Shown here: in pieces, positions 1-64,000 of the stretch
Numbering within the stretch: position 1 is the stretch's first letter
How the letters are laid out: the number at the start of each line of letters is the position of its first letter
Assembly: GCA_963808715.1 (NCBI GenBank)
Contig: CAWEHG010000040.1
Coordinates: 99,420-163,419, forward strand
Origin: Ignavibacteriota bacterium
GTDB lineage: Bacteria; Bacteroidota; Ignavibacteria; UBA10030; UBA6906
Length of the DNA: 64,000 nucleotides
Direction: 5' to 3'
Notes under the pieces: generated by a model
What the model saw: only the letters and a program-made list of their open reading frames with translations
Database searches by the model: none
Told to the model about the DNA's origin: nothing
Translations under genes and position numbers: made by a program

Positions 1-1998
1 CAGCCGGTCGATGGGTGCGGCCACGGTGATCGTCGTGTCGCCCCGGTACCGGCGCCTGTCGTTGAAGTCGTACCACTCGCCCGGTGGAAGCGTGACGGTG
101 CGGGTGGTCTGTCCTTCGTGCAGGGCCGGGGCGACAAGCAGGTGGTCCCCGAAAAGGAACTCCTCGACGTCCCTGAGGTACCGCTCTCGCGACGGGTGGT
201 CGAACACCACCGGGCGCATGGCGGGGATCCCGGTGCGCGAGGCCGCGCGCATTGCCGAGTAGATATACGGGAGGAAGCGATAGCGCAGCATGATGGTCCT
301 GCGGTTGATCGCCGTGAACTCCTCCCCGTACTCCCAGGGTTCCTTGTTCTTCTCTCCGATCGCCGAGTGGGCGCGCATCAGCGGGGTGAAGACGCCGAGT
401 TGCAGCCAGCGGGCGAACAGCTCTCCGCCGGGATAGCCGATGAAGCCACCGATGTCGGACCCGACGAACGGGAACCCCGAGACGCCGAGGTTCAGGCACA
501 TCGGCACCGACATCCGGAGGTGTTCCCACGAGGCGACGTTATCGCCGGTCCAGACCGCCGAGTAGCGCTGTCCCCCGGCGAAGCTCGCCCGCGTGAGGAC
601 GAAGGGGCGTTCCCCGGGGAGGCGGCGCAGCACGCCCTCGTAGGTCCCCAGGGTCATCATCATCCCGTAGACGTTGTGGAATCCCTCGTGAGGGACCGCG
701 CGGCCGTCCGCGTTGTGCCGCACGTCCGCGTCCATGGTCTTGGTCGGCACATTGAACACCGACGGCTCGTTCATGTCGTTCCACCACCCGCGCACGCCGG
801 AGTCGACCAGAGCCGAAAAACCGTCGCCCCACCAGCGCCGGGTCGTCGAGGAGGCGAAGTCCGGGAACGCGCATCGTCCCGGCCAGACGTCCCCTTCGAA
901 GCGCGTGCCGTCGGGCTTGCGCGAGAACACGTTCCCTGCCAGGCCTGAACGGTAGGCGTGGTATGTGGTGTCGGTCTTGATGCCCGGGTCCACGATCACC
1001 GCCACCCGGAAGCCGTCGCGCGCGAGGTCGCGCGTCAGTCCCCGCGGGTCGGCGAAGGTCCTGGGGTTCCAGGTGAAGATCCGGTATCCGTCCATATAGT
1101 CGATGTCGAGGTAGATCACGTCGCACGGGATCCGCTTGTCCCTGAAGGTCCTGGCGATCTCGCGGACGCGGGTGTCGGGCGTGTAGCTCCAGCGGCACTG
1201 CTGGTATCCGAGGGACCAGAGGGGAGGCAGGGGCATGCGGCCGACCAGCTCCGTGAACCGGCCCAGGATGTTCCGGGGGGTCGGGCCCGCGAAGAAATAG
1301 TAGTCGAGCGTCCCGCCGGTCGCGCCGAAGGAGTACTGCCGGTCGGATTCCTTCCCGAAGTCGAACGACGAGCGCCAGGTGTTGTCGAAGAAGATCCCGT
1401 AGGCGCGTCCGTTCCGGAGGCCATAGAAGAACGGGACCGAGACGTAGAGCGGATCGGTGCCGGCGTTGTAGGCGGGGATATCCGAGTTCCACATCGTGGA
1501 AGCGGTCGCGCGACGCTGGAATTCCCCCGCCTTCTCGGCGAGGCCGAAATACGATTCATCGCCGGGCATGGACTTCCAGACCCGCACTTCGTCGCCGCAC
1601 CAGGACATTCCTTTTCCGGGGTGGTCGCCGTTGAGGATCCGGCCCTCCGGGTCGCGGAACGTGATCCTCAGCGGCCGTTTCCCCACCGCGACCACGAGCT
1701 GGCTCGAGGAGAACCTCAGCTCTGCAGGTGTGTCCTCGATGGACGTGGCGACCTCGGGCCAGTCGCGGCGCACCACGGCCCAGGAGGTATCGGTGCCCGC
1801 GCGCGGCCCGGGCGGGACATCACCACGCGACAGACGTCGGGGGCCAGGAAGCGGATGCGAGACCGTGGCGGGTCCTGCGACGAGCAGCAGTTCCTGCGAG
1901 GACGGAGCGGAATATGATCCCAGGTCCCCGATGGTCTGCCACTGGGCCAGCAGCTGGACGGGGATGGTCAGTAAGAGAAGGAGGCGGAATGTCTTCAT
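1..1998 (-). CDS. GH31 alpha-glucosidase, secreted (3' end runs off window; frameshifted)
   Basis: Manual minus-strand translation: signal peptide MKTFRLLLLLTIPVQLLAQW from ATG at 1998; GH31 motifs GWWNDMNEP (~765-795), HNVYG, TRASFAGGQRYSAVWTGDN, WLQLGVFTPLMRAH, YLDIDYMDGYRIFTW. Confidence 0.92.
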   Translation of the reverse strand, partial: MKTFRLLLLLTIPVQLLAQWQTIGDLGSYSAPSSQELLLVAGPATVSHPLPGPRRLSRGDVPPGPRAGTDTSWAVVRRDWPEVATSIEDTPAELRFSSSQLVVAVGKRPLRITFRDPEGRILNGDHPGKGMSWCGDEVRVWKSMPGDESYFGLAEKAGEFQRRATASTMWNSDIPAYNAGTDPLYVSVPFFYGLRNGRAYGIFFDNTWRSSFDFGKESDRQYSFGATGGTLDYYFFAGPTPRNILGRFTELVGRMPLPPLWSLGYQQCRWSYTPDTRVREIARTFRDKRIPCDVIYLDIDYMDGYRIFTWNPRTFADPRGLTRDLARDGFRVAVIVDPGIKTDTTYHAYRSGLAGNVFSRKPDGTRFEGDVWPGRCAFPDFASSTTRRWWGDGFSALVDSGVRGWWNDMNEPSVFNVPTKTMDADVRHNADGRAVPHEGFHNVYGMMMTLGTYEGVLRRLPGERPFVLTRASFAGGQRYSAVWTGDNVASWEHLRMSVPMCLNLGVSGFPFVGSDIGGFIGYPGGELFARWLQLGVFTPLMRAHSAIGEKNKEPWEYGEEFTAINRRTIMLRYRFLPYIYSAMRAASRTGIPAMRPVVFDHPSRERYLRDVEEFLFGDHLLVAPALHEGQTTRTVTLPPGEWYDFNDRRRYRGDTTITVAAPIDRL

Positions 1999-3491: not shown

Positions 3492-4571
3492 ATGGGTGTC
3501 ACGATCTACGATCTCGCCCGCGAGGCCGGCGTCGGCATCGGCACAGTCTCCCGATGCCTCAACAACCACCCGAGCGTCTCCGCCCGGACGCGCGAGCGCG
3601 TGCTCAGCGTCGTCCGCCGCCTGGAGTACCAGCCCCACACCCACGCGAGCGTCTGGCCTCGCGGCGCACCAACACGATCGCCGCGATCATCCCGTTCTTC
3701 ACCAACTACTTCTCCATCCAGGTGCTGCAGGGGGTGCAGGACAAGGCCAGCGAACTCGGACATCGATCTGATCCTCTACGGCGTCAACCACCCGGCCGAG
3801 GTGGAGGAGTACCTCCGGCGTTCGCTGCAGCGGGGACACGTGGACGGCGTGCTGTTCTTCTCGATGCGGTTCCCCGATTCGTACGTGACGAAGTGCCACC
3901 AGCTGCGGCTGCCGCTGGTCCTCATTGACGCGTACCACTCGGAGTTCGACTCCATCCGGGTCGAGAACAAGGAGGGGGCGATGACCGCCACCCGCCACCT
4001 CATCGGCCTCGGCCACCGCCAGATCGCGATGATCAACGCCAGCCTGGAGACCCTCCCCGCGCAGGAACGCCTGCAGGGGTACCGCGCGGCGCTGCTGGAG
4101 AGCCGGACTTCCGTATGTCCGGGAGAACGTCATCGCGGCCGGCGCCATGGCAGGCAGGACGGGTTCAACCGGGAGTCGGGTGCCATGGCCATGCGCCAGC
4201 TGCTGCCGGCCTTTGCCCGTCCCGATCCCGTCACGGCCGTGTTCGTCGTCAGCGATATCCAGGCCCTCGGCGCCCTGGATGCCGCACGCAAGGCCGGGAT
4301 CCGCGTCCCCGGCGACGTGGCCATCGTCAGCTTCGACGACATCGAGCTGGCCCAGCACGCGGGGTTGACCACCATGCGCCAGCCGATGCATCAGATGGGG
4401 ATGCTGGCGGTCGAGTGCCTGACCACCCGGATGGGAAATCCTGACGGGCCGGTCACGCTCACGACCTTTCACCCCGATCTGGTCATCCGTGATACCTGCG
4501 GAGCCCACGTCTCCCGTCCCGGCAGAGCATTCGCCCCGGCGCCCGACGTGGCGCACGAACCGACCGTCTAA
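3492..4571 (+). CDS. LacI-family transcriptional regulator (internal frameshifts)
   Basis: [27 protein letters not shown]; [36 protein letters not shown]. Confidence 0.95.
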
Positions 4572-4592: not shown

Positions 4593-7421
4593 ATGAACCG
4601 CCTCATTCTCAGCCTCGCCCTGGTTGTCCTCGTGACCGGCATCGCCGCCGGCGGCAACACCGGCAAGATCACCGGCATCGTCAAAGACGCCCAGACCGGT
4701 GAAACGCTGGTCGGCGCCAACGTGGTGATCGAAGGGACCATGATGGGGGCCGCGACGAACATCGACGGGTACTACGTGATCCTGAACATCCCGCCGGGCA
4801 AATACATCGCTCGTGGCTTCCGCGGTGGGATTCAACAAGAAGACCACCACCGGGGTGGTCGTCTCCATCGATCTCACCACGACCATCGACTTCGCGCTGA
4901 CCTCCACCGTCGTCGAACGTGGAAGAGGTGGTGGTCACCGCCGAGCGCCCGCTCGTGCAGAAGGACCTCACCGCCAAGACCGCGGTCGTGGGGGGCGACC
5001 AGATCGCCGCCCTCCCGGTGACCGAGGTGGCGAGGTGCTCAGCCTGCAGGCCGGCTTCGTCGCCGGGAGCCTGCGCGGCGGACGCTCCGGTGAGGTCGCC
5101 TACTGGATCGACGGCGTACCGGTCACGGATGCGTTCAACGGGAGCCAGGTCGTGGAGGTGAACAAGAGCGTGGTCTAGGAGATGCAGCTGGTCTCGGGTG
5201 CCTTCAACGCCGAGTACGGCCAGGCGATGTCGGGCATCGTGAACATCGCCACGAAAGAGGGGGGACAGAAGTTCTCCGGCGGAGCGGGGATCTACGGCGG
5301 GACAATACTCTCACGGACGATCAGGATCGCTCTTCCCGGGAACTCAATGCATTCAAGCCCACCGTCGATCCGCAACATCGAGGCGAACCTCAGCGGCCCG
5401 ATCCTCGGGGAGGACCTGACATTCTTCGTCGAACGGCCGGTACATCTACTTCGACGGATGGCAGAAGGGGTACAGCCGGTTCAATCCCTAGAACATCTCC
5501 TATACCGACGACGTCACCCGGCAGTTCACTCTCTACCGCGACGCCTCCGGGCAAGGGGACAGCGCGCTCACCCCCATGAACTGGAGCCGGCGGTACTACG
5601 GCCAGGGGAAGCTCACCTGGCGGGTCTTCTCCACAATGAAGCTGAACGCCAACTACATCTACGATAACACCGAATCCCAGGGCTACAACCGGATGTACTA
5701 TTATAATCCGAACGGGATGGGGACCAGCCACAATACCAGCCAGACCCTCATCATGCAGCTCTCGCAGACCGTCAGCCAGTCCACGTTCTACTCGGTGGGC
5801 TTCTCCTGGTTCCAGCGCGGCGTGAAGTATCACAAGTACGACCTGGAGTACGAGGCGACGAACGACGGCTCCGGCGACCTGATCGAAAAGGACGTCCCCG
5901 ACGGACCGCACTACGTCCATCCGAAGCTGTTCCTGACCAACGATCCGTACAGCTTCTACACCGGCGGGACCGATATGACCCGCTTCCGGAGGACCACGAT
6001 CACGAAGCTGCTGAAGGCCGACCTGTCGAGTCAGCTCGACAACTACAACCTGGTCAAGGTGGGGGTCGAGGTGCGCCGTCACAACATGACCTACGAGAAC
6101 ATCGCGCTCCAGCCGATCCAGACGCAGACGGACATCAACCTGGCGACGGATAGCCCGTACATCCGGACGCGGATCCTCCCGGTGTCGTCCCTCTCTCACG
6201 ACGTGTACGACCGGCGGCCGACGGAGCTCTCGGCCTACATCCAGGACAAGCTGGAGTTCCGCGACTTCATCCTGAACATCGGGCTGCGGTTCGACTATTT
6301 CGAGCCGGACGGGCACGTGCTGAACGACGAACATCCCGATGTGAACGATCCGCTCCACTACACCTATACCGTGGACGATCCGAACATCTACTCGCCGATC
6401 AAGCCGGAGAACCGCGCGCTCACCCTGGAAGAGCGCCAGGCGTTCTGGTACCGGAAGTCCAAGGCGAAGTCCCAGTTCAGCCCGCAGGATCGGGGGATCC
6501 TTCCCGATCACCGACGGCGGCGTGGTCCACTTCTCGTACGGGCACTTCTTCCAGATCCCCCGCTTCGAACGGCTCTACGAGAACCCGGATTTCAAGATCG
6601 GCTTCGGGACGGGGAACCAGGGGATCGTCGGCAACACCGACCTCAGGCCGGAGCAGACGATCAACGGCGAGATCGGCATCCACCAGCAGCTGGCCCCGGA
6701 TCTGGTCGGTCGACGTGACCGCGTACCTTCGTGACATCCGCGGCCTGACCGGGACCAGGGCGGAGGAGATCATCGTCTTCGGCGGAGCCTCGAAGTACAG
6801 CAAATACGTCAACAGCGATTTCGGGTTCGTGAAGGGGATCGTGCTGACCCTCAACAAGCGGTTCGGCGTCCGGGTTCAGCGCCACGATGGACTATACCTA
6901 CCAGGAGGCGAAGGGGAGCGCATCGGATCCGGCGCAGGCCCGCAATGCCCTGGCCGGGGGCTCACTTCCCGAGGTCCAGCTCACGCCGCTCGCCTGGGAT
7001 CAGCGGCACACGCTGAATGTCACCGCATCGTACACCGCCGCTAACTGGGGGGCCAGCGCGATCGGCCGGTACGGCAGCGGCTCGCCGTACACGCCGCGGC
7101 GGCACCACGGACATCACTTCGCTGCTGACCAACAGCCAGACCAAGCCGGCCTACAGCGGGCTGGACCTGCGCGCGTTCTACGAGCTCGCGATCGAACCGA
7201 TCCGGTTCGTCTTCTTCCCAGGGTCTTCAACGTCTTCGACCAGCCGGAACGAGGATCAGGTGTTCGACGATACCGGCCGGGCCGGCTACACGACGGATGA
7301 GGCACGCGTCCGTGCCACGGGGACCCGCGAGCTGGTGAATTCCCTGGACGCCTGGTTCACCCATCCGGAGTACTACTCGGAGCCGCGTCGCATCGAATTT
7401 GGCATGAACCTGGAGTTCTAA
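4593..7421 (+). CDS. TonB-dependent receptor with N-terminal carboxypeptidase-regulatory-like domain (frameshifts, two spurious TAGs)
   Basis: Signal peptide, GKITGIVKDAQTGETLVGANV, EEVVVTAERP, plug LRGGRSGEVAYWIDG and SGAFNAEYGQAMSGIVNIATKEG, SAYIQDKLEF..LNIGLRFDY, C-terminal PRRIEFGMNLEF. Confidence 0.9.
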
Positions 7422-10400
7422 ATGACCACCCGACCCTTCTTCCGAGGCTTGCTGCTCTTCGCCGTGGCGGCATCCGCGTTCGCCCAGAGCGGCCGCGAGA
7501 ACCAGCGCTCAGCCGTCATGAACGGCAACCAGGTCCGCACCGTGTTCGGGAACTGGGGCGTCATCGGCCAGCCCGCCGATACCCGGCCGCAGCGGTCCTG
7601 GAAGAGCGACAACAACGGGTACCTGGGCGACGTGAGTCCCTTCGTCGGCGCCGAAGTCCGATGGCAGGACACGTCGTTCCGTTCGGTCGTGACCACCCCG
7701 CCTCGCGCCCCTCCAGCACTGCCCGACACAGGACCCGGTCTGGGCAGCACTGGACCTTCCAACCGGTGAGCGGGTACTTCGCCGGGTCCCCCAACCAGAG
7801 CGTGGCCATGAGCAACAACACGCAGTCCTGGCCCGAGACCTGGCCCGACAAGCTGACGGATGCGCTCGATCCGGGATGGCACGGATCGTGGAACGGCTAC
7901 TTCGGCAAGCGGATCAGCGCCGATCTGGAAACCTATTTCGTCATGGACGACAACAACGACGAGCGGTTCAATCTTGCGATCAACAACCCGCGGGGGATCG
8001 CGTTCAGGCCCGATTCGCGCAACGCGGGACGGAACGGCCTCGGACTGGAGGTGCGCGTGCGGGGGATGCAGTGGGCGCAGTTCCTCGCGCAGGACAACAT
8101 CTTCTGGCTCTACGAGATCGCCAACACCGGGACGACCAACTACGACCGCGCGGTGTTCGGCATGCTCGTCGGGAACTACGTCGGGCGTGACCGGCAGCGA
8201 CGGATCCCCCAGGAATACGACGACGACTGGTCATTCTACGATGTCAACGAGAACATCACCTACACCGGCGACTTCGACCGGAGCACCAGCCGGAATCCGC
8301 GGTGGAACCAGCGATTCGAGTGGGCATGGTCGGCTACGCCTTTCTCGAAAGCCCCGGCAATCCGTTCGACGGCATCGACAACGACGGGGATGCCGACTCC
8401 GTCCTCGCCGCGGCAGCCGCCCCGTTCTTCACCGAGAACAGTTTTGACTCCATCCTCATCACGGCGGGCTCGAGGATCGTGCTGATCAGGGACGATTTCA
8501 CCCGCGTCGTGTATCACGGTCCCGAGCGGTGGACTCGGTCAAGGTCAAGACCCGCGGGATGAAGGATTCGGTCTGATCAATCCGGGGAGGACCACGGTCG
8601 TGGAAGGGAACGTCGTCCTGGACGTCTCAGGGCAACTCGTCGATGAACCGCAACGCCTACGACGGGATCGACAACAACTTCAACGGCCTGATCGACGAGA
8701 ACTAGTTCCTGCACTACCGGCAGTACAAGAAGAACCGGAATCCCCCGTACAGGTCCTGCTCGATATCCTCCGCCCCGTGCGCCACATCGACTACTGGCCG
8801 GACGGCGGCACGAGCGCGCTCAGCATGATCGACGAGCGGCGGAACGACGGTGTGGACAACGACCGGGACTGGAACTCAGCTGTTCGACGACGTCGGGCGT
8901 GACGGCATCGGCTCCTCCGCGGTGAACTACCCGGCCCCGACTTCGGAGAGAGCGACGGCCAGCCGACATCCGGCTACGATGCTAACGGGAACGACACCGG
9001 ACTGCCCGGCGAGCCGCAACGTCGACAAGACCGACGTGGACGAGTCCGACCAGATCGGGCTGTCCAGCTTCTACTACTTCTCTCCTGCGAACATGGTGCG
9101 TCTGGGAGACGATGAGGAGCTCTGGCGGAACCTCGCACCCGGATTCTTCGACGTGCCGACCTCGATCGTCAACAACCGGCCGGAACGGGGCGAGGACGGG
9201 GACTTCATCTACGGCTCCGGCTACTTCCCGCTGCTGGCGGGGGCGACCGAGCGCTTCTCGCTCGCGCTGGTCTACGGCGGCGGCGCGCGGCGGCAGCGTG
9301 CAGGACGACATCGACGACCTGCTGAAGAACAAGCGGACCGTCCAGAAGATCTACGACGCCAACTACCAGTTCCCCACGCCGCCCGAGAAGCCGACGGTAT
9401 CGGCCGTCACCGGCGACCGGTCGGTGACCCTCTACTGGGACCGCGTGGCCGAGGCCACGGTCGATCCGGTCCTCCGGATCAAGGATTTCGAGGGGTACAA
9501 GATCTACAAATCCACCGACCCCGACTTCAGCGACATCTTCACGATCACCGACGGATCGGCACCGTTCGCGGGTACCTGCCGCTCGCGCAGTTCGACCTGA
9601 GCAATGGCATCAAGGGGTACTTCAAGTCCACCGGGGACCTCTACCAGGCATCGGGCGGGTATGCCTACTTCCTCGGCGACGACGTCGGGCTGCAACACAC
9701 GTTCGTCGACAACGAAGTCGAGAACGGGCGCCGTTACTACTATGCGGTGGTCGCCTATGACCGGGGCGACGAGGTCGCGGGGATCTTCCCGGGCGAGAAC
9801 ACCAAAGTGGTCCGGGTGCTCTCCACCGGCGAGGTCGAACACGACATCAACGTGGCGGTGGTGGTGCCGAACATCCCGTCGGCCGGCTATTCGAAGGCGA
9901 AGGACGGCACGCCACTTGCCCATCCCGCGGGCCCGGCCACGGGCGCCGCAGCCTTCCAGATCGTCGACAACGGCAAGCTGACCGGGCACAAGTACCAGGT
10001 GTCGTTCCTCGACACGCAGATGGATTCGGTCGACAACAACAACAATCTGAAGCTGGACGCGGCGGACTCCACCGAATGGGACCGGCGAACCACGTTCTAC
10101 TACGTTCGCGACCTGACGGAATTCTCGGAGAATTTCACGGTGGAATCCACCGACACATCGGTCATCGTGAATCTCTCAAAGACCAACCTGGTTCCGGGAA
10201 CCGTGAGCGTGCTGACCTCCGGCGGCGCGGCGCTCGCCCACGTCGGCCTACACGGTCAATACGGCGCGCGGGATCATCCAGGCGACCAGCCGCGGATCGA
10301 TCCCGCCCGGGACCTACACGGCGAAGTACCAGTACTATCCGGTGTACCGCAGCCCGAATCTCCAGGGGACGCCGTTCCTCACCGAGAACGCGGAGTCCGA

Positions 10401-11266
10401 CATTTTCGACGGCCTGCAGATCCAGTTCTCGAACCACTGGGTGGTCAAGGACAGCGCGATCACCTGGGTGGGCAAGAACGCCTATGTCGTCAACATCGGG
10501 CCGACGAATCTTACGCTCCTGGATCCGCCGCTCATCGGGTATGCCCGTCCCGCCGACTACGAGATGCAGTTCGCCAACACGGTGGTGGACACCTCTACAC
10601 CCGGGCCGTTCCCGTACGACGTGCCGATCCCGACCAAGTTCAGGATCTTCAACCGGACCGAAGGGCGATACATCGAGTTCTACTACGTGAAGGGAGGGAT
10701 CAAGGATCCGAGCATGATCGAGCCTCTGGACGAAGTGATCCTGGCGGAACCCAACCCCCGCGGGCAGCTCGGCCCGACCTGGGATCTCTTCTTCCTGGCG
10801 AAGCCCGGCGAGCCGGGGGACACCCTTTACAACCTCGGGAACAACGACCGGCTCGTGATCACGATGTTCAAGCCGTTCCGGAACGGTGACGTGTTCGATC
10901 TCGAGACCACCCTGCCTTCGGTGGACCAGGCCGTGGCGAAGAGCACGCTCGACGACATCCGCGTCGTGCCGAATCCCTACGTTACCGCAGCCGCGTTCGA
11001 ACCTCCCCTCAACCCGGGGATCACGAGCGGGCGCGGGGAGCGGAAGATCGACTTCACGAACCTGCCGGCCGGATGCACCGATCCGGATCTTCACCTCCCG
11101 GGGGGACCACGTGGCCACGCTGCAGCACGACGGGTCGATCAGCAACGGGACGGTCTCCTGGAACCTGAGGAGCAAGGAGAACCTGGACGTCGCCTTCGGC
11201 GTCTACTTCTATGTGGTCGAGTCGTCGGTCGGCACCAAGACCGGCAAGATAGCCATCATCAAGTGA
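7422..11266 (+). CDS. Large (~1280 aa) secreted hypothetical protein with DGxDN-type Ca-binding repeats, FN3-like segment and T9SS-like C-terminal domain (frameshifted)
   Basis: Signal peptide ending SAFA-Q; repeats NPFDGIDNDGD, NAYDGIDNNFNGLIDE, RNDGVDNDRDW; VTLYWD..FEGYKIY..YYYAVVAYD; C-terminus IRVVPNPY..IDFTNLP..IRIFT..WNL..GVYFYVVES..GKIAIIK. Confidence 0.8.
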
Positions 11267-11308
11267 GCGGACGACCATGCACACGACTTCTATGAAGAAC
11301 CAGGTGTG

Positions 11309-11392
11309 GCCGCGGAGTCGCCGAGGCGCAGAGGCGGGCTTGAATTCTTCCCGCTCGATCCTCATGCTCAGCGTCCTCTGCGTCTCTGCGGC
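11309..11392. repeat. REP-like hairpin with 8-nt periodic arms (CGCAGAG/CTCTGCG)
   Basis: GCCGCGGAGTCGCCGAGGCGCAGAG pairs with CTCAGCGTCCTCTGCGTCTCTGCGGC. Confidence 0.75.
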
Positions 11393-12384
11393 GATCCTGG
11401 TGGTACATCTGTGCCCCACAGTTCGCGGTGGCGCAGGATAAGATCGGGACGACCGCCGCGCAGTTCCTGAGCATCTCCGTCGGCCCCCGGGCCATGGGGA
11501 TGGGAAGCGCGTACGTCGCGGAAGGACGGGACGCCAGCGCCCTCTACTGGAACCCCGGCGCCTTCCAGCAGGCCGGCCGCTCGGAGCTGTTGTTCTCCCA
11601 CACCAACTGGCTGGTGGGATCCAAGTTCCAGTGGTTCGGGTTCATGTACAACTTCGGCGACGAGAACGCGCTGGGCCTGAGCCTCACGCAGCTGGACTAC
11701 GGCGAGGACGACGTCACCACCGTCAGCCAGCCCACGGGGACAGGCGAGCGGTGGTCGGCACGCGACCTGGCCGTCTCCCTCTCGTACTGCCGGCGTCTGA
11801 CCGACCGCTTCTCCATGGGGGCCACGGTGAAGTACATCGGCCAGAGGATCTGGAACGAGACCGCCAGCTCGTTCGCCTTCGACCTGGGCCTGCTCTTCGT
11901 CACGGGGTTCAACGGGATGCGCCTCGGGGTGACGATGACCAATTTCGGCGGCGACCTGAAGATGGACGGGCGGGACCTGCTGATCCGGGTCGACATCGAC
12001 CCGGCAAATTCCGGTTCCAACAAGGCCCTCACGGGGAGCCTGAAGACGGATCCCTGGGCCCTGCCGCTCCAGTTCCGCGTCGGGCTGGCGATGGACGTGA
12101 TCCAGATGTCCGACATTCGGCTCACCGTGGCCACGGACGCCGTCCGGCCGAACGACAACGCGTCGTACGTCAACGCCGGGGGCGAGCTCGCCTGGAACGA
12201 GATGGTGTTCGTGCGCGGGGGCTACAAGTCCCTGTTCCTGAGCGACCGCGAGGACGGCCTGGCGCTGGGCGCGGGGGTGCGCTACACGCAGCCGGGACTC
12301 GGATCGATCGAAGTGAACTACGCGTACACGCAATTCGGCGTCTTTGGCAATCTGAATACGTTCGCCCTGGCCATTGCGTTCTGA
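11364..12384 (+). CDS. PorV/PorQ-family outer-membrane beta-barrel
   Basis: KIGTTAAQFLSISVGPRAMGMG..ALYWNPG N-terminal signature; alternating beta-strand pattern; terminal F; one indel near 11415 joins signal peptide MLSVLCVSAAILVV..AVA-QDK. Confidence 0.88.
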
Positions 12385-12442: not shown

Positions 12443-12511
12443 CAAGTCCCTACAGGTTGGTTCAATATCATCTGTTGATGTTCAATCCACACCCACATAA
12501 AGGAGTGCCTT

Positions 12512-15500
12512 ATGAAGCGCTTCGCTTTGCTACTTCTGCCGTTGTTGATCGCAGGAGTCGTGTTCGGTGCTGCTGACCGGCGCGCGGAGAAACTCGCCAT
12601 GGAGCGAGAAGCCCGTTCGACGGATTTCGCGGCGAAGGTTCAGGCGGCGACCGGCGGTTGGTTGCTGATGTATCCTGAGGCGTCCGGCCACGATTTCCGT
12701 GGCGTTTCTCTTTCTCCCAGCGGGAAGATCTGGATCACAGGGTTCAACACGACGACGAACCTGGACTGGGTGTGGACGTCGAATGACAAAGGCGCCTCCT
12801 GGTCGAAGACCCAGGTCCTGACGGGACAGGGGATCACCGAGGTCGCGGCGGTGAACGACACCGAAGCGGTCTTCGGGACCTTCGATGGTCGTCTCTTCTA
12901 CACGAAGAACGGCGGGGTCAAATGGGACAGCGTCTATGCCTATGCTCCCGGCGTGGGCTGGTTCAACGGCATTCGTGTGGTCAAGGGCGACACGCTGATG
13001 GCCTTCGGTGATGCCGATGCGCAGGGTCTGTGCGTGGTGATGAGCGTCGACCGTGGCAAGACCTGGACCCGTTTCACGAACCTTCCGACGGAAGTGAAGG
13101 AAGCCGATGGCTACGCCGCCTACTCCACCTATCGCCAGGCCATGTCGGTCTACAACCGCACCGTCTGGATTTGCGCTGTACTTCGGGTCTTCAGCCGCAA
13201 CGCGCGCCTCCTGAAGACCACCGATATGGGCGCGACGTGGACGACCTGGGAAGTTACCCTGACCGGCGGTACGGCCCAGAACTACTACCTCCGGGCAATC
13301 AACTTCGTGGACGATTCGCTCGGGTTCGGTGTCGACCGGCAGATCGCCGTCGAGCAATGACCACTGGGTCCACAAGACCACCAACGGCGGTCTGACCTGG
13401 GGCGATACGCTGAGCCTTGAGCCCGGTCCGCATGCCCAGTTCAAGGTCCGTTCGGTGAAACCGGTTCCCGGCACCACCACCTGGTACGCCGCGGGCTGGA
13501 ACGCCACGGGGAACGTCTCCCGGGCATGGAAATCGATCGACAACGGCACGACCTGGACCCCGATGCATCCCGGTACGGTCGGGATCCTGACGAACTACGC
13601 GCCTTCAAGACCGACGACCGAGGGTATGTGGTCGGGGCCGGGATCGCGCTGAAGTACAATGCCAAGAACGTCCGCAAGGTCACGTTCAACCTGAACACCG
13701 CCACCGTGCCTGACACGCTGCCGGTGACCGGGAGCGTGACGCAGATCCGCGGCGGCGTCAACCATGCCGGCGGCGGATTCTCCCCGATCACCTGGGGGAA
13801 CGACGCGCAGAACAACATGACCCGCGTCGGCGGCGACTACTGGAGGAAGACCTCTACATGCAGGTCGGCGACACGCTGAGCTACAAGTACGTCATCGAGC
13901 ATCCGGCCGGGAACACGGGCTGGGAGCAGGGCGTGGTTCCGGCCAACTTCCCGAGCCAGACCAACGCGAACCGGAGCTACGTCGTGGCCGACAAGGACAC
14001 GGTGCTCCCGGTGGAGTTCTGGAACAACGGCGCGAACACCGCCCGCAGTATTTCCGTCCCTATGCGGCGGTGGCCGACAGCTACATGACGGTCTACTTCC
14101 GCGTCAACATGCTGGGCCCGATCTCCAGCGGCACGTTCGGGTTCAACAACGACAAGGACACGGTCGGCGTGCGCGGCGGCGGTCCGGCAGGCAGCGACCT
14201 GAACTGGGCTCCGACGTTCTACCTGAAGAAGGAGCCGGTAGCGTCGAACTGGGCCAACACGACGGTCCAGGCGGGCTCCTTCTGGTCGGGCGGGCTGAAG
14301 TTCCCGAAATCCGCGGTCAACGACCGGCGACTCCATCTCCTACAAGTTCCTCATCGGCTATGACTGGGGCCGGACGAGTTGCAGGGCGGCGCGCCGAACC
14401 GGAAGTTCACTGTTCCGGTCGGCAAGAAGGACACCACGCTCTACTTCTCCTACTTCAACAACGAACGCCCGACGGTGCGTGCGAACCCCGACACGGTGGC
14501 GATGACCTTCCGCGTCAATCTCGCGCAGACCGCGGCGAGCGGCGGGTTCAACGTGACCAACGATACGATCCAGGTGCGGACCGGCTACTTCAACACCCCG
14601 GCGATCCGGGCCGGACGCGTCAGATGGTCCGCGTCTCAGGGACGATCTTCCAGGTGACCGACACGATCGTCACCGCGAAGAACAAGCTGCTGGACTACCA
14701 GTACTACGTCATCCGTGACGGTGTGGAAATCCGCGAGAACTACTACAACTTCAACTACACCGGGCCGACTCCCAGCGAGGCGGAACGCCGTCAGATCCTT
14801 ATCCCGACGACGGCCTCCAAGGCGCAGATGACGTTCGTCTACGACACGTCCACCAGCATCACACAGGCCCGGCGTCAGCCGAACTTCCCGAACTCCCGCG
14901 AGCTCGCGCAGAAGGTGAGGGTGCGGTAGGAGGTCGACCTCCGTCCGGCATACTACACGCTGGAACTGGGCAGCGACTCGCTTGTTCGACATCCAGAGCG
15001 CGTTCCGGACGCTCATCCCGAAGGACAAGGACTCCATCATGAAGTGGGGAGTCTGGATGAACGGTCTTGCGGTGGGCGCCTGGAGCAATCCGACGGCGGC
15101 GACTGGGGCCTCGGGCTCCACGACAACCTGGCGAAGAAGATGTATGACAACGGCACCAACGGTGACCGCGTCGCCAGGCGACTCCATCTTGACGCGGTAG
15201 GTCCTCTGCGCGCCGGACAGCATCACTCGTCGGCACGAAGGACCGCGTGGGCCAGGTCTTCAAGTTCGGTGTCTACGGCGGTGACAACGAAGGTGGCAGC
15301 GGCGGTTTCGGCAACAACCACGCCGCGAACATCGTCGATCGCCGACACGATCTATACGATCGCCGACCAGTTCGGCAGCATCAACCCGGCGTACTACCGG
15401 TTCTGGGACTACGACAACAAGAAGCCCAAGGTCCCGACCGCGTGTCGGCGAGCTCCGGTGCCGCTGACGTTCGACCTGGCACAGAACTACCCGAACCCCT

Positions 15501-15727
15501 TCAACCCTGCCACGCAGATCACGTACTCCCTGCCGGTGGCGGCCAAGGTTGAGCTGAAGGTGTTCAACGTGCTGGGTCAGGTGGTGGCCACGCTGGTCGA
15601 TGAAGTGAAGCCCGCCGGTGCCTACACCGCGCGCTTCGATGCGACCAACTTCGCGACCGGGATGTACATCTACAAGATCCAGGCGGGGAGCTTCTCGAGC
15701 GTCAAGAAGATGTTGCTCGTGAAGTAG
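12512..15727 (+). CDS. T9SS type-A-sorted protein: BNR/Ycf48-like beta-propeller plus tandem CBM20-like Ig modules (frameshifted)
   Basis: Signal peptide; Asp-box repeats SNDKGASW, TKNGGVKW, SVDRGKTW, TTDMGATW, TTNGGLTW, SIDNGTTW; modules starting VTFNLN, VYFRVNM, MTFRVNL; CTD LAQNYPNPFNP..GMYIYKIQAG..KKMLLVK. Confidence 0.82.
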
Positions 15728-15898: not shown

Positions 15899-17701
15899 CA
15901 TCTTGCGTTGTTCGCCATGTTCTCCCTGCCTGTCGGGTCTGCCGGACGTGCCCAGTCCGATCCCGTCGTCGCGCGGGCGGGGTCGATGTATATCTCCGAA
16001 GACGAATTCCTCGAACGCTTCGAACTCTCTCCCGGTCTCTACCGGCGCAAAGGCGCCCGGCTCGAGAGTGAGAAGCTGTCACTGCTCTACTCCATGATCG
16101 CGGAAAAGCTGCTGGCCCAGGAGGCTCTGGAGCGGAACTTCGATCGGGACACCCTGTACTCGTCCGCCCTTGACGCGGTGGCCCGGCTCCTGGCACGCGA
16201 CGAGCTCTACCGGCAGGAGGTCGGGCGGAAGGTCAGCGTCACGCCTGCCGAGATCACGCAGGGAATGCAACAGGCGCGCACGGAGCTGCTCGTCCGTTTC
16301 CTCTTCTGCGAAGACTCCACCACCGCCGCGTTCCTCCGCGGCCGCATCCGCACGGCGGAGGACCTCGATCGCATGGTGCCGGAGAGCGGCATGGGGGTGC
16401 TTCGCGACACCGCCACGGTGGTGTGGGGCGACGCCGATACCACCATCGAGAGGACCGCGTACGCCCTCGGCCCGCGGAGCGGTCTCGCCCGCGGTCCGCG
16501 CCGGCGACGGCTGGTATGTCCTGCGCGTGGTTTCAAAACGGCGGAGCCCGGTGTACGGTGAACTCTCCCCCGGAGCTCTCCGTGAACGGGTGGAAGCCAC
16601 GGTGCGCCGCCGGAAAGAGGCGGTCCGGGAGATCGAGTTCCTGCACGACTTCCTTCGCGACAAGATCGCCTATTCGCCTCCCCGGACTGCCCGGCGCTTC
16701 GCCGAGGCCGTGCGCGTGACCTTCGGGAACGTTACCGTCCCCCCTCCACCACTCTGGATTCGGCGGCGGCAGCCGCCCTGGAACAGCGATGCGCTCTCTT
16801 CCTCGATGACACTCTGCTCGTGGCCGGGCGGGAAGATATGGCGGACCGGCGAGATGATCGACCATCTCCGCCGCCGGGGATTCGCCGTTTCGGGGGATTC
16901 CGTTTTCGGCATCCCGGGCCGGCTTCGCGCCGTGTTCGAAGAAACGGCGCACCATGAACTCCTCGCTCAGGAGGCAATGCGTCGCGGACTCGATCGCACC
17001 CCCGAAGTGCAGAAGAAACTGGAGCCCTGGCGGCACCACTATCTTGCAGGCATCGCGCGCCGCAGGATCCCCCTTTCGGCCACCGACGGGGAGGTCTATG
17101 CGTATCTCCGCTCCACCGGCGCCTCGCCGGTCGTCCCGGAGGTCAGGTTGAGGGAGTTGCGCACCCCTTCCGTCGGGCAGATGGTGAAAGCGATCGAGCT
17201 GCTGGACGCCGGTGGTTCGTTCGAGGAGGCCGTGGCCCGGTTCTCGTCCGATCCCGCAGCGAAGGACGCGGGCGGGTTGACAGCGATTCTTTCCTGTTAC
17301 CGAGCGGCAACCCATAGGCTCGATCGCCGCGGCGATGAAGGTCGGACAGATCTACGGCCCGTTGCGCGACTCGCTCGGACTGCTGCTCTTCCGGCTGGAG
17401 GCATTGCGGAACACGCGCGACAGCGCGGATACCTCCTCCGCCCGGGCGTTCGAGACGCGCACGGAGGGAACTGCTCAGAATGAAGCAGCAGCGGGCGACC
17501 ACACTCCTGATCTCCCGCGCGGCCAAAGACCGGGGATTCGAAGTGTACACAGACCGGCTCAAACAGCTGAAAGTGACCCCCTTCCCGATGGTGGCCTATC
17601 GCATCCTCGGGTTCGGCGGGAGGATGTTCGAAGTCCCCTTCGTCGAGCCGCAGCTCGAGTGGCTTGAGACCGAACCGCCGGCGGAAAGGATCCTGCCATG
17701 A
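15860..17701 (+). CDS. PpiC/SurA-like peptidyl-prolyl isomerase family protein (frameshifted)
   Basis: VVARAG..ISEDEFLERF, LLYSMIAEKLLAQEA; two parvulin-like segments (VSPAVRAGDGWYVLRV; SFEEAVARFSSDPAAKDAGG..MKVGQIYGP). Confidence 0.72.
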
Positions 17702-62618: not shown

Positions 62619-64000
62619 CTAGAGGATGAACTTCACCGAGATCATCGCGTCGTGGTACTGGATCGTCTGCTCTACGGTGGCATCGGACGGTGTCGAAACC
62701 TCGTCTTCCCGCTGGTCCCTCCAGCCGTAGAGATAGCCGATGTCGAAGTAGAGTCGGTCTCCGGAATTGATGCCAAACCCGAGGGTGATGAACTTCTGGT
62801 CGTATCGGCTGGGATCCGCCTTGTACGGCGACGGACGGTACATCGCTCCGGCGCGCGCGATCAGGCCCGTGAAGGGGAGCCTGAATTCCGCCCCGGCGTT
62901 GAGGTTCAGCACCCGCGTGAACTGGTCCTTGATCTGCTTGTTGATGTCGCTCTGGTCAGGGTAATCCATTCCTCCCGTGACCTTCATCTGGCTGTAGTCC
63001 ACGTAGGTGGCTTCGGCGGTTCCGGTGAGGATCCAGAGGTTCACCATCGCGCCGACGGTCGCTTCGTAAGGAGGGGTCATCCGGTAGCTTCGCGAAGCGC
63101 CCACCGGGTCCACGTTCAAGATGGTCCCGCTCGAAAAATTCGTCGTCCCGCTCAGGTACTGCGTCTGGCTCACGGTGTGGGCGAAGGGGACCTTGAATGA
63201 CGCGCTCACTCCAATGAAGTTCCAGAGCCTGTAGACCATGCCGAACCGGACGTCCCATCCCCGGTACTCCGTGCTCCGGATGTCGCGGTACGAGCCGTCG
63301 ATGAAACCGGCGGTCCGGGGGTCGCCGGGCACCGTCCGGAGGCTGTCCGCGTAGGTGTTCCGGGTATCCTGGGCGATGAAGTTCCGGTCACTGCTGTACG
63401 TCCCGAGGTTATAGCTCCCGCTCACGCCGAAGAAGACGTTCGGGGCGGCCTCGAGGGAGATCCCCGTCGAAAAGTGGAGCATGTTCCCCGCGTCCAGCAC
63501 GTAGCCCTCTTCGTTGAAATCCCCGGCCAGTACGGTCTGGTCGCCCAGGTACCTCCCGGCGTTGTCGTAGGTCGGGTAGATCAATCCCAGGTTCCGGCCG
63601 ACGTTCGTGGGGTTCTGCGTCAGCAGCTGGAGGAACGACGTCTTGCCCTCGTTGTATCCGGCGTACTTCCCGCCGGTGTTGAAGTCCTTGTCCTGGGTGT
63701 AGCCGAGCGCGAAGACCGCCTGACGGGTGGAATCCATCCTGATGGGGAAGGTGAACCCTGCCTGGCTCAGGGAGGTGTTCGTCGTCGTGAAGTTGGTCTG
63801 CGTTCCGTAGAATCCGCTCTGGTACATGAAGCCGTTCGTGTTCACGGACATCGTGTAGGTCGTCCCCTCCGCGAATCCGAGGGTGGCCGGATTCATCCGG
63901 AGCGCCGTGAAATCGTAGCCGATCGTCGAATAGGCGTTCCCCATGCCCAGGGAGCGCGCGTTGAAATTGAGTCCCTGGCGGGAGATCCGGATCGCGTCGT
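62619..64000 (-). CDS. FadL/OmpP1-like outer-membrane barrel (5' end outside window)
   Basis: NARSLGMGNAY..NPATLG N-terminal hatch motif; beta-strand pattern; C-terminal ISVKFIL. Confidence 0.72.
   Translation of the reverse strand, partial: DAIRISRQGLNFNARSLGMGNAYSTIGYDFTALRMNPATLGFAEGTTYTMSVNTNGFMYQSGFYGTQTNFTTTNTSLSQAGFTFPIRMDSTRQAVFALGYTQDKDFNTGGKYAGYNEGKTSFLQLLTQNPTNVGRNLGLIYPTYDNAGRYLGDQTVLAGDFNEEGYVLDAGNMLHFSTGISLEAAPNVFFGVSGSYNLGTYSSDRNFIAQDTRNTYADSLRTVPGDPRTAGFIDGSYRDIRSTEYRGWDVRFGMVYRLWNFIGVSASFKVPFAHTVSQTQYLSGTTNFSSGTILNVDPVGASRSYRMTPPYEATVGAMVNLWILTGTAEATYVDYSQMKVTGGMDYPDQSDINKQIKDQFTRVLNLNAGAEFRLPFTGLIARAGAMYRPSPYKADPSRYDQKFITLGFGINSGDRLYFDIGYLYGWRDQREDEVSTPSDATVEQTIQYHDAMISVKFIL

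Follow-up and report, generated by a model that had tools for sequence, protein, structure and literature searches.

How are glycans captured for import in a bacterium whose genome gives no match to SusD? This question is raised by a 64,000-nucleotide stretch of DNA from an Ignavibacteriota bacterium (G000:C40:99420-163419, approximately 64% G+C; G000 is the genome that holds it), which was analysed as a whole and is called the window here. At 4593-12384 on the forward strand, the window was read as encoding in succession a TonB-dependent receptor (TBDR), a secreted protein of approximately 1,280 amino acids (the large protein) and an outer-membrane barrel of the PorV/PorQ family. The original prediction, made from the sequence of the window, was that these three genes form a glycan-capture machine without SusD, in which a protein that a type IX secretion system (T9SS) exports and its own PorV delivers or tethers serves as the lid or binding partner of the TBDR. 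It expected the three genes to occur together in other genomes, the large protein to match neither a catalytic carbohydrate-active enzyme (CAZyme) nor a SusD model, and confident interfaces between the large protein and the TBDR and between its tail and the barrel. In this study we give a probability of about 0.5 to the reading that the trio (the cassette) is a SusD-independent glycan-capture core, in which the large protein, held at the surface by a PorQ-like barrel of its own, partners the TBDR.

Pfam and NCBIfam matches and translation located the three genes where they had been predicted. The cassette and the parts of the large protein are as follows:

4593-7421, forward strand: TBDR with an N-terminal carboxypeptidase-regulatory-like domain, a plug and a barrel (Pfam, frameshift-aware alignment).
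7422-11266, forward strand: large secreted protein of approximately 1,280 amino acids, of an unnamed family (stop codon TGA at 11264-11266).
7422-7487, forward strand: Sec signal peptide of the large protein, MTTRPFFRGLLLFAVAASAFA/Q, without a lipobox cysteine (translation).
7488-9396 (approximate), forward strand: head of the large protein, a predicted galactose-mutarotase-like beta-supersandwich with inserted acidic DxDxD repeats of the Ca-binding type (orthologue model).
9397-10941 (approximate), forward strand: predicted stalk of the large protein, an FN3 domain followed by a further all-beta region (orthologue model).
10942-11263, forward strand: C-terminal domain (CTD, the tail) of the large protein, with a T9SS CTD fold closest to that of PorZ (structure comparison; one assembly indel near 11074).
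11364-12384, forward strand: PorV/PorQ-family outer-membrane barrel, with the mature part at 11425-12384 in one frame (NF033709).

The TAA stop codon of the TBDR gene (7419-7421) abuts the ATG of the large gene at 7422 with zero spacing, and the corresponding gaps outside the window are mostly 0-50 nucleotides. In 33 of 41 related genomes, open frames of approximately 1,000-1,300 amino acids encode relatives of a clean 217-amino-acid piece of the large protein, and the orthologues of the large gene are intact open reading frames of 1,238-1,297 amino acids. Twenty loci of orthologues and paralogues were compared. The PorV-like gene adjoins the large gene in all 19 intact loci of relatives, and a full TBDR gene lies upstream in 18 of these 19, the exception (L013) being cut by a contig end. 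In a scan of one genome per species, at least 595 places of the large family were confirmed. The best 80 of these loci, from the genomes of other species, were surveyed for synteny with home-made profiles. Their titles name Ignavibacteria-type, Melioribacteraceae, Neomarinimicrobiota, Calditrichota/Caldithrix, KSB1, Kryptonium, Stahlbacteria and Rhodothermales metagenome-assembled genomes (MAGs), among others; these are labels given by the submitters and are perhaps loose. Forty-seven of the 80 have enough flank for a count (at least 4.2 kb before and at least 1.3 kb after the large gene; the other 33 are too near a contig end). These 47, from several FCB lineages, all have the TBDR, large and PorV-like genes on one strand, and the expected co-occurrence of the three genes was therefore borne out. 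Over all 80 loci, the TBDR was seen in 73 and the PorV-like gene in 66. The order was TBDR-large-PorV in 51 loci and TBDR-PorV-large in three, with a MAG labelled Melioribacter roseus among the latter, and the remaining loci are incomplete at contig ends or have tandem large genes. Loci L066 and L069 were considered as synteny exceptions and rejected, the order there being TBDR-PorV-large. Some cassettes have two or three tandem large genes between the TBDR and the barrel (L076:4989-11845 and others).

The distance matrices of the three families correlate with each other (r 0.83-0.89 in 68 complete trios), a value reached in none of 500 permutations, which shows that cassettes duplicate and diverge as units. 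The number of distinct cassette copies per genome ranges from one (G040) to approximately eight (G015), with four in G000. The three further large-family copies of G000 lie at C31:210010-214393 (forward), C31:217413-221837 (reverse) and C28:16486-19328 (forward); each has a PorV-family gene close by and is broken by frameshifts too. A search of 301 high-quality genomes sampled from the phylum detected the large family in 120 of them, and cassettes were always beside sugar-utilisation genes in the loci whose neighbours were scanned. In one genome (G016), 21 PorV-family genes pass the cut-off; one stands beside PorU and six beside members of the large family. Among 14 further PorV-family paralogues of G016 (L111-L124), 11 lie in cassettes of a TBDR, a middle protein of 500-1,100 amino acids and a barrel, so that this architecture is broader than the large family. 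The middle proteins resemble the large family only weakly (home-made profile), and two of them (L116:3888-7103 and L118:8471-11746) have no tail of the usual ...IIK type.

In the window itself, the frames of the three genes are interrupted, and the breaks were located by frameshift-aware alignment of orthologous proteins. The TBDR gene needs 10-13 frame changes and the large gene 14 (approximately 27 altogether). After frame correction, 668 of 923 aligned codons of the TBDR are identical to the G015 orthologue, and 799 of 1,252 aligned codons of the large gene are identical to the G018 orthologue. In the PorV-like gene, the signal peptide (ATG at 11364) and the mature part are in different frames, indicating one probable indel and ruling out a fully intact gene in the assembly. 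Metagenome contigs of four public runs from three studies (X1 and X3 are one sample), 90-99% alike to the window, were compared with it; since the source sample may be among these runs, they are not all independent. Twelve one-nucleotide differences were listed and 38 more exist, and the parts of the stretch without a contig are uninformative. Ten of the 12 listed differences lie no more than 10 nucleotides from an inferred break and are of the sign needed to restore the frame (4806, 4914, 5031, 7103, 7244, 8750, 8876, 8932, 9016 and 10237); the remaining two, at 8791 and 8803, compensate each other. Other genes of G000 are broken up as well, SprA into more than 10 pieces and PorU into two. 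As the public contigs carry frame-restoring one-nucleotide differences at the same places, the breaks are assembly errors and not marks of pseudogenes, and the genes are to be read as intact in nature. The indels are not in long homopolymers. Approximately 27 of them fall in the 6.7 kb of the two large genes (window 4593-11266) and their spread is uneven, with none in the 1-kb gene of a LacI-family regulator that heads the locus and one in the PorV-like gene.

The first gene encodes a TonB-dependent receptor. Fragments of the window TBDR match the Pfam families CarboxypepD_reg, TonB-dependent receptor barrel and OMP_b-brl_4 (PF25183), and an intact orthologue matches PF00593 at E 8.4e-27 and Plug (PF07715) at E 6.5e-6, the two models of the plug and the 22-strand barrel. 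With the SusC/RagA model (TIGR04056), three intact TBDRs scored 53-64 bits against a cut-off of 368, and the alignment did not reach beyond the N-terminal domain and the first part of the plug. An adjacent susD-like gene was not found, the gene after the TBDR having no SusD domain. None of 19 large proteins matched the SusD models, and there is no lipobox cysteine in the N-terminus of the large protein (MTTRPFFRGLLLFAVAASAFAQSG). PF07980 and PF14322 matched nothing in five genomes (G000, which has a completeness score of only 61.8%, and four relatives); the positive control, Bacteroides thetaiotaomicron, was matched. SusD is present in 166 of the 301 sampled genomes of the phylum. The cassette and SusD occur together in 71 genomes; a further 49 have the cassette without SusD, 95 have SusD without the cassette and 86 lack both, so that mutual exclusion of the two is ruled out. 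In the window's own family, the cassette is present in seven of seven genomes and SusD in one of seven. The claim that SusD is missing thus held for G000 and its close kin, but not in the sense of a replacement of SusD across the phylum.

Compared to the SusC/SusD pairs of Bacteroidia, the cassette likewise has a CarboxypepD_reg-bearing TonB transporter directly before the gene of a large surface protein, and there are likewise many copies of it per genome, in loci that also contain glycoside hydrolases (GH), regulators and inner-membrane sugar transporters. It differs in that its TBDR lies outside the SusC/RagA family, and in that the partner is an all-beta protein of 1,280 amino acids with a Sec signal, no lipobox and neither PF07980 nor PF14322. 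A third gene, that of the PorV-like barrel, is obligatory in the cassette, and the contact between partner and TBDR, in the cassette, is one that we infer.

The translated large protein has a signal peptide, acidic repeats of the DGxDN type and a tail of the form VVPNPY...GVYFY...KIAIIK. No Pfam family was found in 19 intact large proteins apart from sub-threshold tail matches, no NCBIfam family in four of them, and no sequence relative in the PDB at E up to 1 (profile search); its ESM Atlas clusters are named 'hypothetical protein' and have no Pfam family. Two models were built from the G018 orthologue with alignments of 70-71 sequences, one of residues 24-668 (mean predicted local distance difference test, pLDDT, 91.6; predicted template-modelling score, pTM, 0.90) and one of residues 655-1286 (pLDDT 90.5, pTM 0.87). 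In VIA-align comparisons of the predicted model, the head is a galactose-mutarotase-like beta-supersandwich. Its best match is the N-domain of a dextran dextrinase (9ju0; Z 19.0, root-mean-square deviation 3.3, 255 residues aligned), followed by a domain of a GH94-like cyclic-glucan synthase (Z 18.8), the N-domain of a glucodextranase (Z 18.7) and the N-domain of a bacterial glucoamylase (Z 18.4); GH94/GH65 phosphorylases gave Z 15-18. These matches are to non-catalytic N-domains of GH15, GH94 and GH65 enzymes. Aligned residues span 5..641 of the model, yet only approximately 255 of 645 align, which indicates that the sandwich is interrupted by a large insert, the acidic-repeat region. Foldseek of the head model against the PDB gave no match at E up to 0.001 (best 1.2e-3, template-modelling score 0.20). 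The second model starts with an FN3 domain (Z approximately 8, model residues 6-178), the stretch between FN3 and the tail (model residues approximately 180-520) is all-beta, and Foldseek of this half gave generic multi-FN3/Ig strings only. Neither model contains a catalytic (alpha/alpha)6 or TIM domain.

Head sequences of paralogues are 35-40% identical, and five acidic residues of the head are invariant (E151, D158, E290, E528 and D530, A2 numbering). The likeness to N-domains suggests, at the level of the models, that the large protein is non-catalytic. A catalytic CAZyme domain was not detected by Pfam, NCBIfam or PDB sequence comparison, although a supersandwich might be put to a new catalytic use. 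The expectation that neither a CAZyme nor a SusD model would match held in the 19 proteins compared to Pfam and the four compared to NCBIfam.

The tail was compared to known C-terminal domains. It aligns with the C-terminal domain of PorZ (5m11) at Z 11.5 (root-mean-square deviation 1.7, 85 residues aligned, 27% identity); the next neighbours are the C-terminal domain of mirolase (Z 8.1) and the C-terminus of PorU (Z 7.7). It has the T9SS CTD fold, an invariant PNP(Y) motif and a GVYFY...GK.AIIK end, and it is matched weakly by the PorZ C-terminus model (NF052228, E 2.2e-4). No tail model of type A (PF18962/TIGR04183) or type B (PF13585) matched over its cut-off; below the cut-offs, Por_Secre_tail matched one of 19 tails (E 0.0022) and CHU_C two of 19 (E 0.004). 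The barrel scored 205.5 bits with NF033709 (cut-off 90, profile positions 1-326; orthologues 199-208 bits) and remained under the equivalog cut-offs of PorQ (NF033711, 95.9 vs. 220), PorV (NF033710, 71.7 vs. 250) and PorV2 (70.9 vs. 325). No PorP/SprF model appeared for it in the NCBIfam scan. The housekeeping PorV gene adjoins PorU on another contig (C36), indicating that the cassette barrel is an extra, private paralogue. At the end of the window, 63822-63968 on the reverse strand (G000:C40:163241-163387) has a weak PorV-family match (E 9.7e-4), which may be the edge of another barrel gene.

A complex of the tail (117 residues, 72-row alignment) and the cassette barrel (352 residues, 66 rows) was predicted. 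The interface score ipSAE was 0.90 in each of three runs, compared to 0.00 in the best of three controls, with contact agreement between runs of at least 83% and partner pLDDT of at least 77. In the calibration of the method, 58 of 80 solved complexes attained this mark, against 2 of 110 mismatched pairs; these counts apply only roughly here, because the tail and the barrel were run with our own alignments. Among the tail residues in contact are those of the invariant PNP(Y) strand, the GVYFY strand and the GK.AIIK strand. The tail is thus predicted to bind the cassette's own barrel, and, of the confident interfaces anticipated by the original prediction, this one was obtained. The comparison it had drawn with type B tails and the SprB-SprF pair did not hold, the tail being closest to PorZ and the barrel closest to PorQ and not PorP/SprF-like.

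By analogy, the closest precedent for such an anchor is PorZ-PorQ of the T9SS attachment complex of Porphyromonas gingivalis. A passage of a review (PMC10202324) states that PorZ retains its C-terminal domain for binding PorQ, and proposes that cognate PorV-like barrels shield such tails from cleavage. The likeness lies in a cargo tail bound by a PorV/PorQ-family barrel, as predicted here, and in the fact that the cassette barrel scores best with PorQ among the equivalog models. The differences are that the cassette barrel is below the PorQ cut-off and is present in many private copies beside cargo and TBDR, and that the cassette cargo has another body and sits in sugar-utilisation loci, not in secretion machinery. 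SprB-SprF, and type B tails with PorP-like partners in general, share with the cassette a co-encoded barrel dedicated to export or anchorage, according to the same passage (PMC10202324), but the cassette tail is not type B and its barrel is of the PorV/PorQ family. BamG of the Bacteroidota beta-barrel assembly machinery (BAM) is, in a part of the paper describing it (PMC12578637), similarly a 14-strand FadL-type barrel serving as socket for an extracellular protein, in another complex and with lipoprotein partners. The BamG model (NF053685) matched the barrel of one paralogue weakly (25.7 bits vs. a cut-off of 250).

The secretion machinery was analysed in the cassette-bearing genomes. SprA, PorU and PorV were detected over their cut-offs in G000 and four relatives, and SprA was present in 237 of the 301 genomes of the phylum, in seven of seven genomes of the window's family and in every family of its class. 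The classical T9SS is defined in part by GldM. In G000 and the four relatives, GldM (PF12081, TIGR03517) was found in none of the five genomes, GldL (TIGR03513) was not found either, and GldK gave sub-threshold matches only. The same models served as their own positive control in the 301-genome sample, where GldM was matched in 74 and GldL in 76 genomes. None of the 120 cassette-bearing genomes of this sample had GldL or GldM at the family cut-off, a search that would miss divergent motors; the single overlap was a sub-cut-off GldL match in G215 (31.6 vs. 68.3 bits). The reason is either a motor that has diverged beyond the reach of these models or a different supply of energy for export. The T9SS export of the original prediction consequently needs a qualification: SprA, PorU, PorV and the CTD fold are there, and GldL and GldM are not recognisable.

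The genes around the cassette are those of alpha-glucan utilisation, and the claim that a LacI gene heads an alpha-glucan locus proved correct. Three neighbours on the forward strand were delimited:

3492-4505, forward strand: LacI-family regulator heading the locus (Pfam LacI and Peripla_BP_3; single-frame tblastn match to residues 1-337 of an orthologue).
12479-15724, forward strand: BNR/sortilin-like surface protein with a type A T9SS tail, frameshifted in the assembly (Pfam, tblastn to an orthologue).
15929-17698, forward strand: SurA-like peptidyl-prolyl isomerase/chaperone, frameshifted in the assembly (tblastn to an orthologue; Pfam Rotamase and SurA_N in orthologues).

Upstream of the LacI gene, on the minus strand, are genes for GH31 and MalK. 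Downstream of the SurA-like gene are a GH13 amylase with a T9SS tail and then GH57 and a GH13-like gene. The window also holds two MFS genes, a solute-binding protein, two ABC permeases and genes of the GDE_C/glucodextranase type. Of 22 loci that extend at least 5 kb downstream, 13 have the SurA-like isomerase after the cassette (approximately 500-610 amino acids; L012:12975-14801, L015:14894-16717, L126:4314-5837 and the window gene); it may be a dedicated periplasmic chaperone for the outer-membrane proteins of the cassette. Each cassette also has, as a neighbour, a secreted protein that combines a type A T9SS tail with a carbohydrate-binding module (CBM); this module is CBM20 in alpha-glucan loci and CBM9 elsewhere. 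Neighbours of this type are the window gene at 12479-15724, L012:10784-12832, L125:283-2217, L094:3-1805, L127:7384-10080 and L129:9079-11271, and some orthologues of the BNR/sortilin-like protein of the window carry CBM20. The CBM-bearing neighbours are likely to be the substrate-specific binders, and the BNR/sortilin-like protein is likely to be the starch binder of this locus. The enzymes of the cassette locus here are GH13, GH57, GH77 and GH31; paralogous cassettes lie in loci that have sugar ABC transporters and GH130, GH2, GH63-like, CBM9 or CBM20 proteins. A head conserved at 35-40% identity thus serves loci with different enzymes, which suggests a generic role for the large protein.

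The mechanism that we propose takes the three genes as the outer-membrane core of a SusD-independent polysaccharide-utilisation locus (PUL), here for alpha-glucan or maltodextrin. The TBDR would import oligosaccharides. The large protein would be exported by Sec and would then cross the outer membrane by a route dependent on its C-terminal domain (T9SS-type, with SprA, PorV and PorU). Its PorZ-like C-terminal domain would stay bound to the PorV/PorQ-family barrel of the cassette, as PorZ is by PorQ, retaining the protein at the surface. The non-catalytic supersandwich head, possibly stiffened by its Ca-binding loops, would be carried on a stalk of FN3 and other all-beta domains. Beside the TBDR, the large protein would act as a generic partner that captures glycans and hands them over, the counterpart of SusD and other surface glycan-binding proteins, and specificity would come mainly from the neighbouring CBM-bearing T9SS proteins and the secreted glycoside hydrolases (GH13). 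Surface retention, glycan binding and physical or functional coupling of the large protein to the TBDR are what we infer in this scheme. A bolder form of it is tentative, and we hold it clearly less probable. In this form the three proteins would be one stable machine, in which a barrel-tethered, tail-keeping protein is the substrate-capturing lid of a non-SusC transporter. The machine would be a second, independently evolved counterpart of the SusCD 'pedal bin' and, in Ignavibacteria, Rhodothermia-like lineages, Marinimicrobia, Calditrichota and KSB1, the chief glycan importer. It would depend on export by SprA, PorV and PorU without a canonical GldLM motor.

Several observations weigh against the glycan-capture core. 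By its model scores the TBDR is not a SusC/RagA family member, and as 71 of the 301 genomes carry SusD as well, the cassette is not simply a substitute for it. The tail falls below the model cut-offs of types A and B, and the putative export route lacks a GldL/GldM motor that the models recognise. Structures of PorV with cargo exist, and the score of the tail-barrel complex may reflect likeness to these and is not proof of binding. Operon partners share their history, so that the correlation of distances does not show binding, and co-regulation without contact between TBDR and large protein accounts for the synteny equally well. The invariant acidic residues of the modelled head, in a fold that is possibly catalytic, may leave room for an enzyme.

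Four other explanations were considered. The strongest is that the large protein is a surface binder or adhesin only, on its private barrel, with the TBDR working alone and the genes merely co-regulated. The anchor evidence and the non-catalytic fold fit this equally well, and TonB-dependent transporters of other phyla function without a lid protein. We nevertheless consider it rather unlikely: the trio is complete in every one of the 47 loci with enough flank, in different lineages and in paralogues that serve different glycans, the stop of the TBDR gene abuts the start of the large gene more tightly than loose co-regulation would predict, and 11 of the 14 further PorV-like paralogues of G016 are again in cassettes of TBDR, middle protein and barrel. 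Less probable still is that the head is an unclassified surface glycoside hydrolase, lyase or epimerase trimming polymers for the TBDR. All its best structural neighbours are carbohydrate-active enzymes, its five acidic residues are invariant and galactose mutarotase itself is a catalytic supersandwich, but the matches are limited to non-catalytic N-domains with no (alpha/alpha)6 or TIM domain, and the acidic residues stand in DxDxD-type repeats typical of Ca sites. The presence of the same head (35-40% identity) at loci for alpha-glucan, GH130/mannan-type, GH2 and further substrates also speaks against a substrate-specific catalyst.

The two barrels might instead be an export or biogenesis module for the large protein and have no part in uptake, which could offset the missing GldLM. 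The TBDR-like Oar exports a protease in Myxococcus, and this analogy, a TBDR that lies outside the SusC family and matches PF25183, the lack of GldL and GldM matches in cassette-bearing genomes and the SurA-like chaperone in 13 of 22 loci are all in keeping with such a module. It is nonetheless improbable, given that the TBDR has a plug domain and the usual architecture, that the loci contain glycoside hydrolases, inner-membrane sugar transporters and sugar-responsive regulators, and that SprA, PorU and PorV are present and hundreds of ordinary type A tail proteins have no private TBDR. Least credible of all is that the locus is a decayed, functionless pseudogene array in the window organism. 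It would account for approximately 27 frame changes over two genes, but the frame-restoring differences come from contigs of three studies, identity to orthologues after frame correction is 64-72%, and the essential-looking SprA and PorU are likewise broken in G000, the completeness of which is 61.8%.

The trio has probably been seen before in Melioribacter roseus and named by position. A part of the genome paper of this organism (Kadnikov et al. 2013, PMC3534657) describes a starch operon with three outer-membrane genes beside GH13 and GH31, and names Mros0761-0759 as SusC, SusD and SusE. The likeness to the cassette is that of three outer-membrane genes in a starch operon of a cultured organism of the class Ignavibacteria; the difference is that the names are given there without a family description and, if these genes are the trio, are by the present tests not SusD or SusE homologues. 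A MAG labelled M. roseus, the completeness of which is unstated, has six cassettes and no SusD Pfam match. The identity of Mros0759-0761 with the cassette was not confirmed: L094 is another locus (CBM9 neighbour), and the contig of the MAG that has a CBM20 neighbour measures just 7.4 kb. No description of the cassette was found in the full-text literature, a search that most subscription journals and supplements lie outside. The statement of the original prediction that the arrangement is not known to have a functional description can accordingly be kept, with the amendment that the arrangement was probably noted in passing in that part of the M. roseus paper. The cassette is a conserved combination, without a family name, of known types of parts (a TBDR, a tail-bearing cargo and a PorV-like barrel).

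PUL prediction, and with it much of what is believed about glycan foraging in the FCB group, rests on SusC/SusD pairs, and Ignavibacteria, Marinimicrobia, Calditrichota, KSB1 and their kin consequently look poor in PULs. If the proposed role is true, the trio would be a marker for glycan loci in abundant sediment and ocean lineages, and PorV-like barrels would be used not only in secretion but also as permanent sockets for nutrient importers at the surface. It would also raise the question of how tail-dependent secretion runs without a recognisable GldLM motor. Cultured carriers of the cassette exist (Melioribacter and, by MAG labels, also Ignavibacterium and Caldithrix), which makes the idea directly testable.

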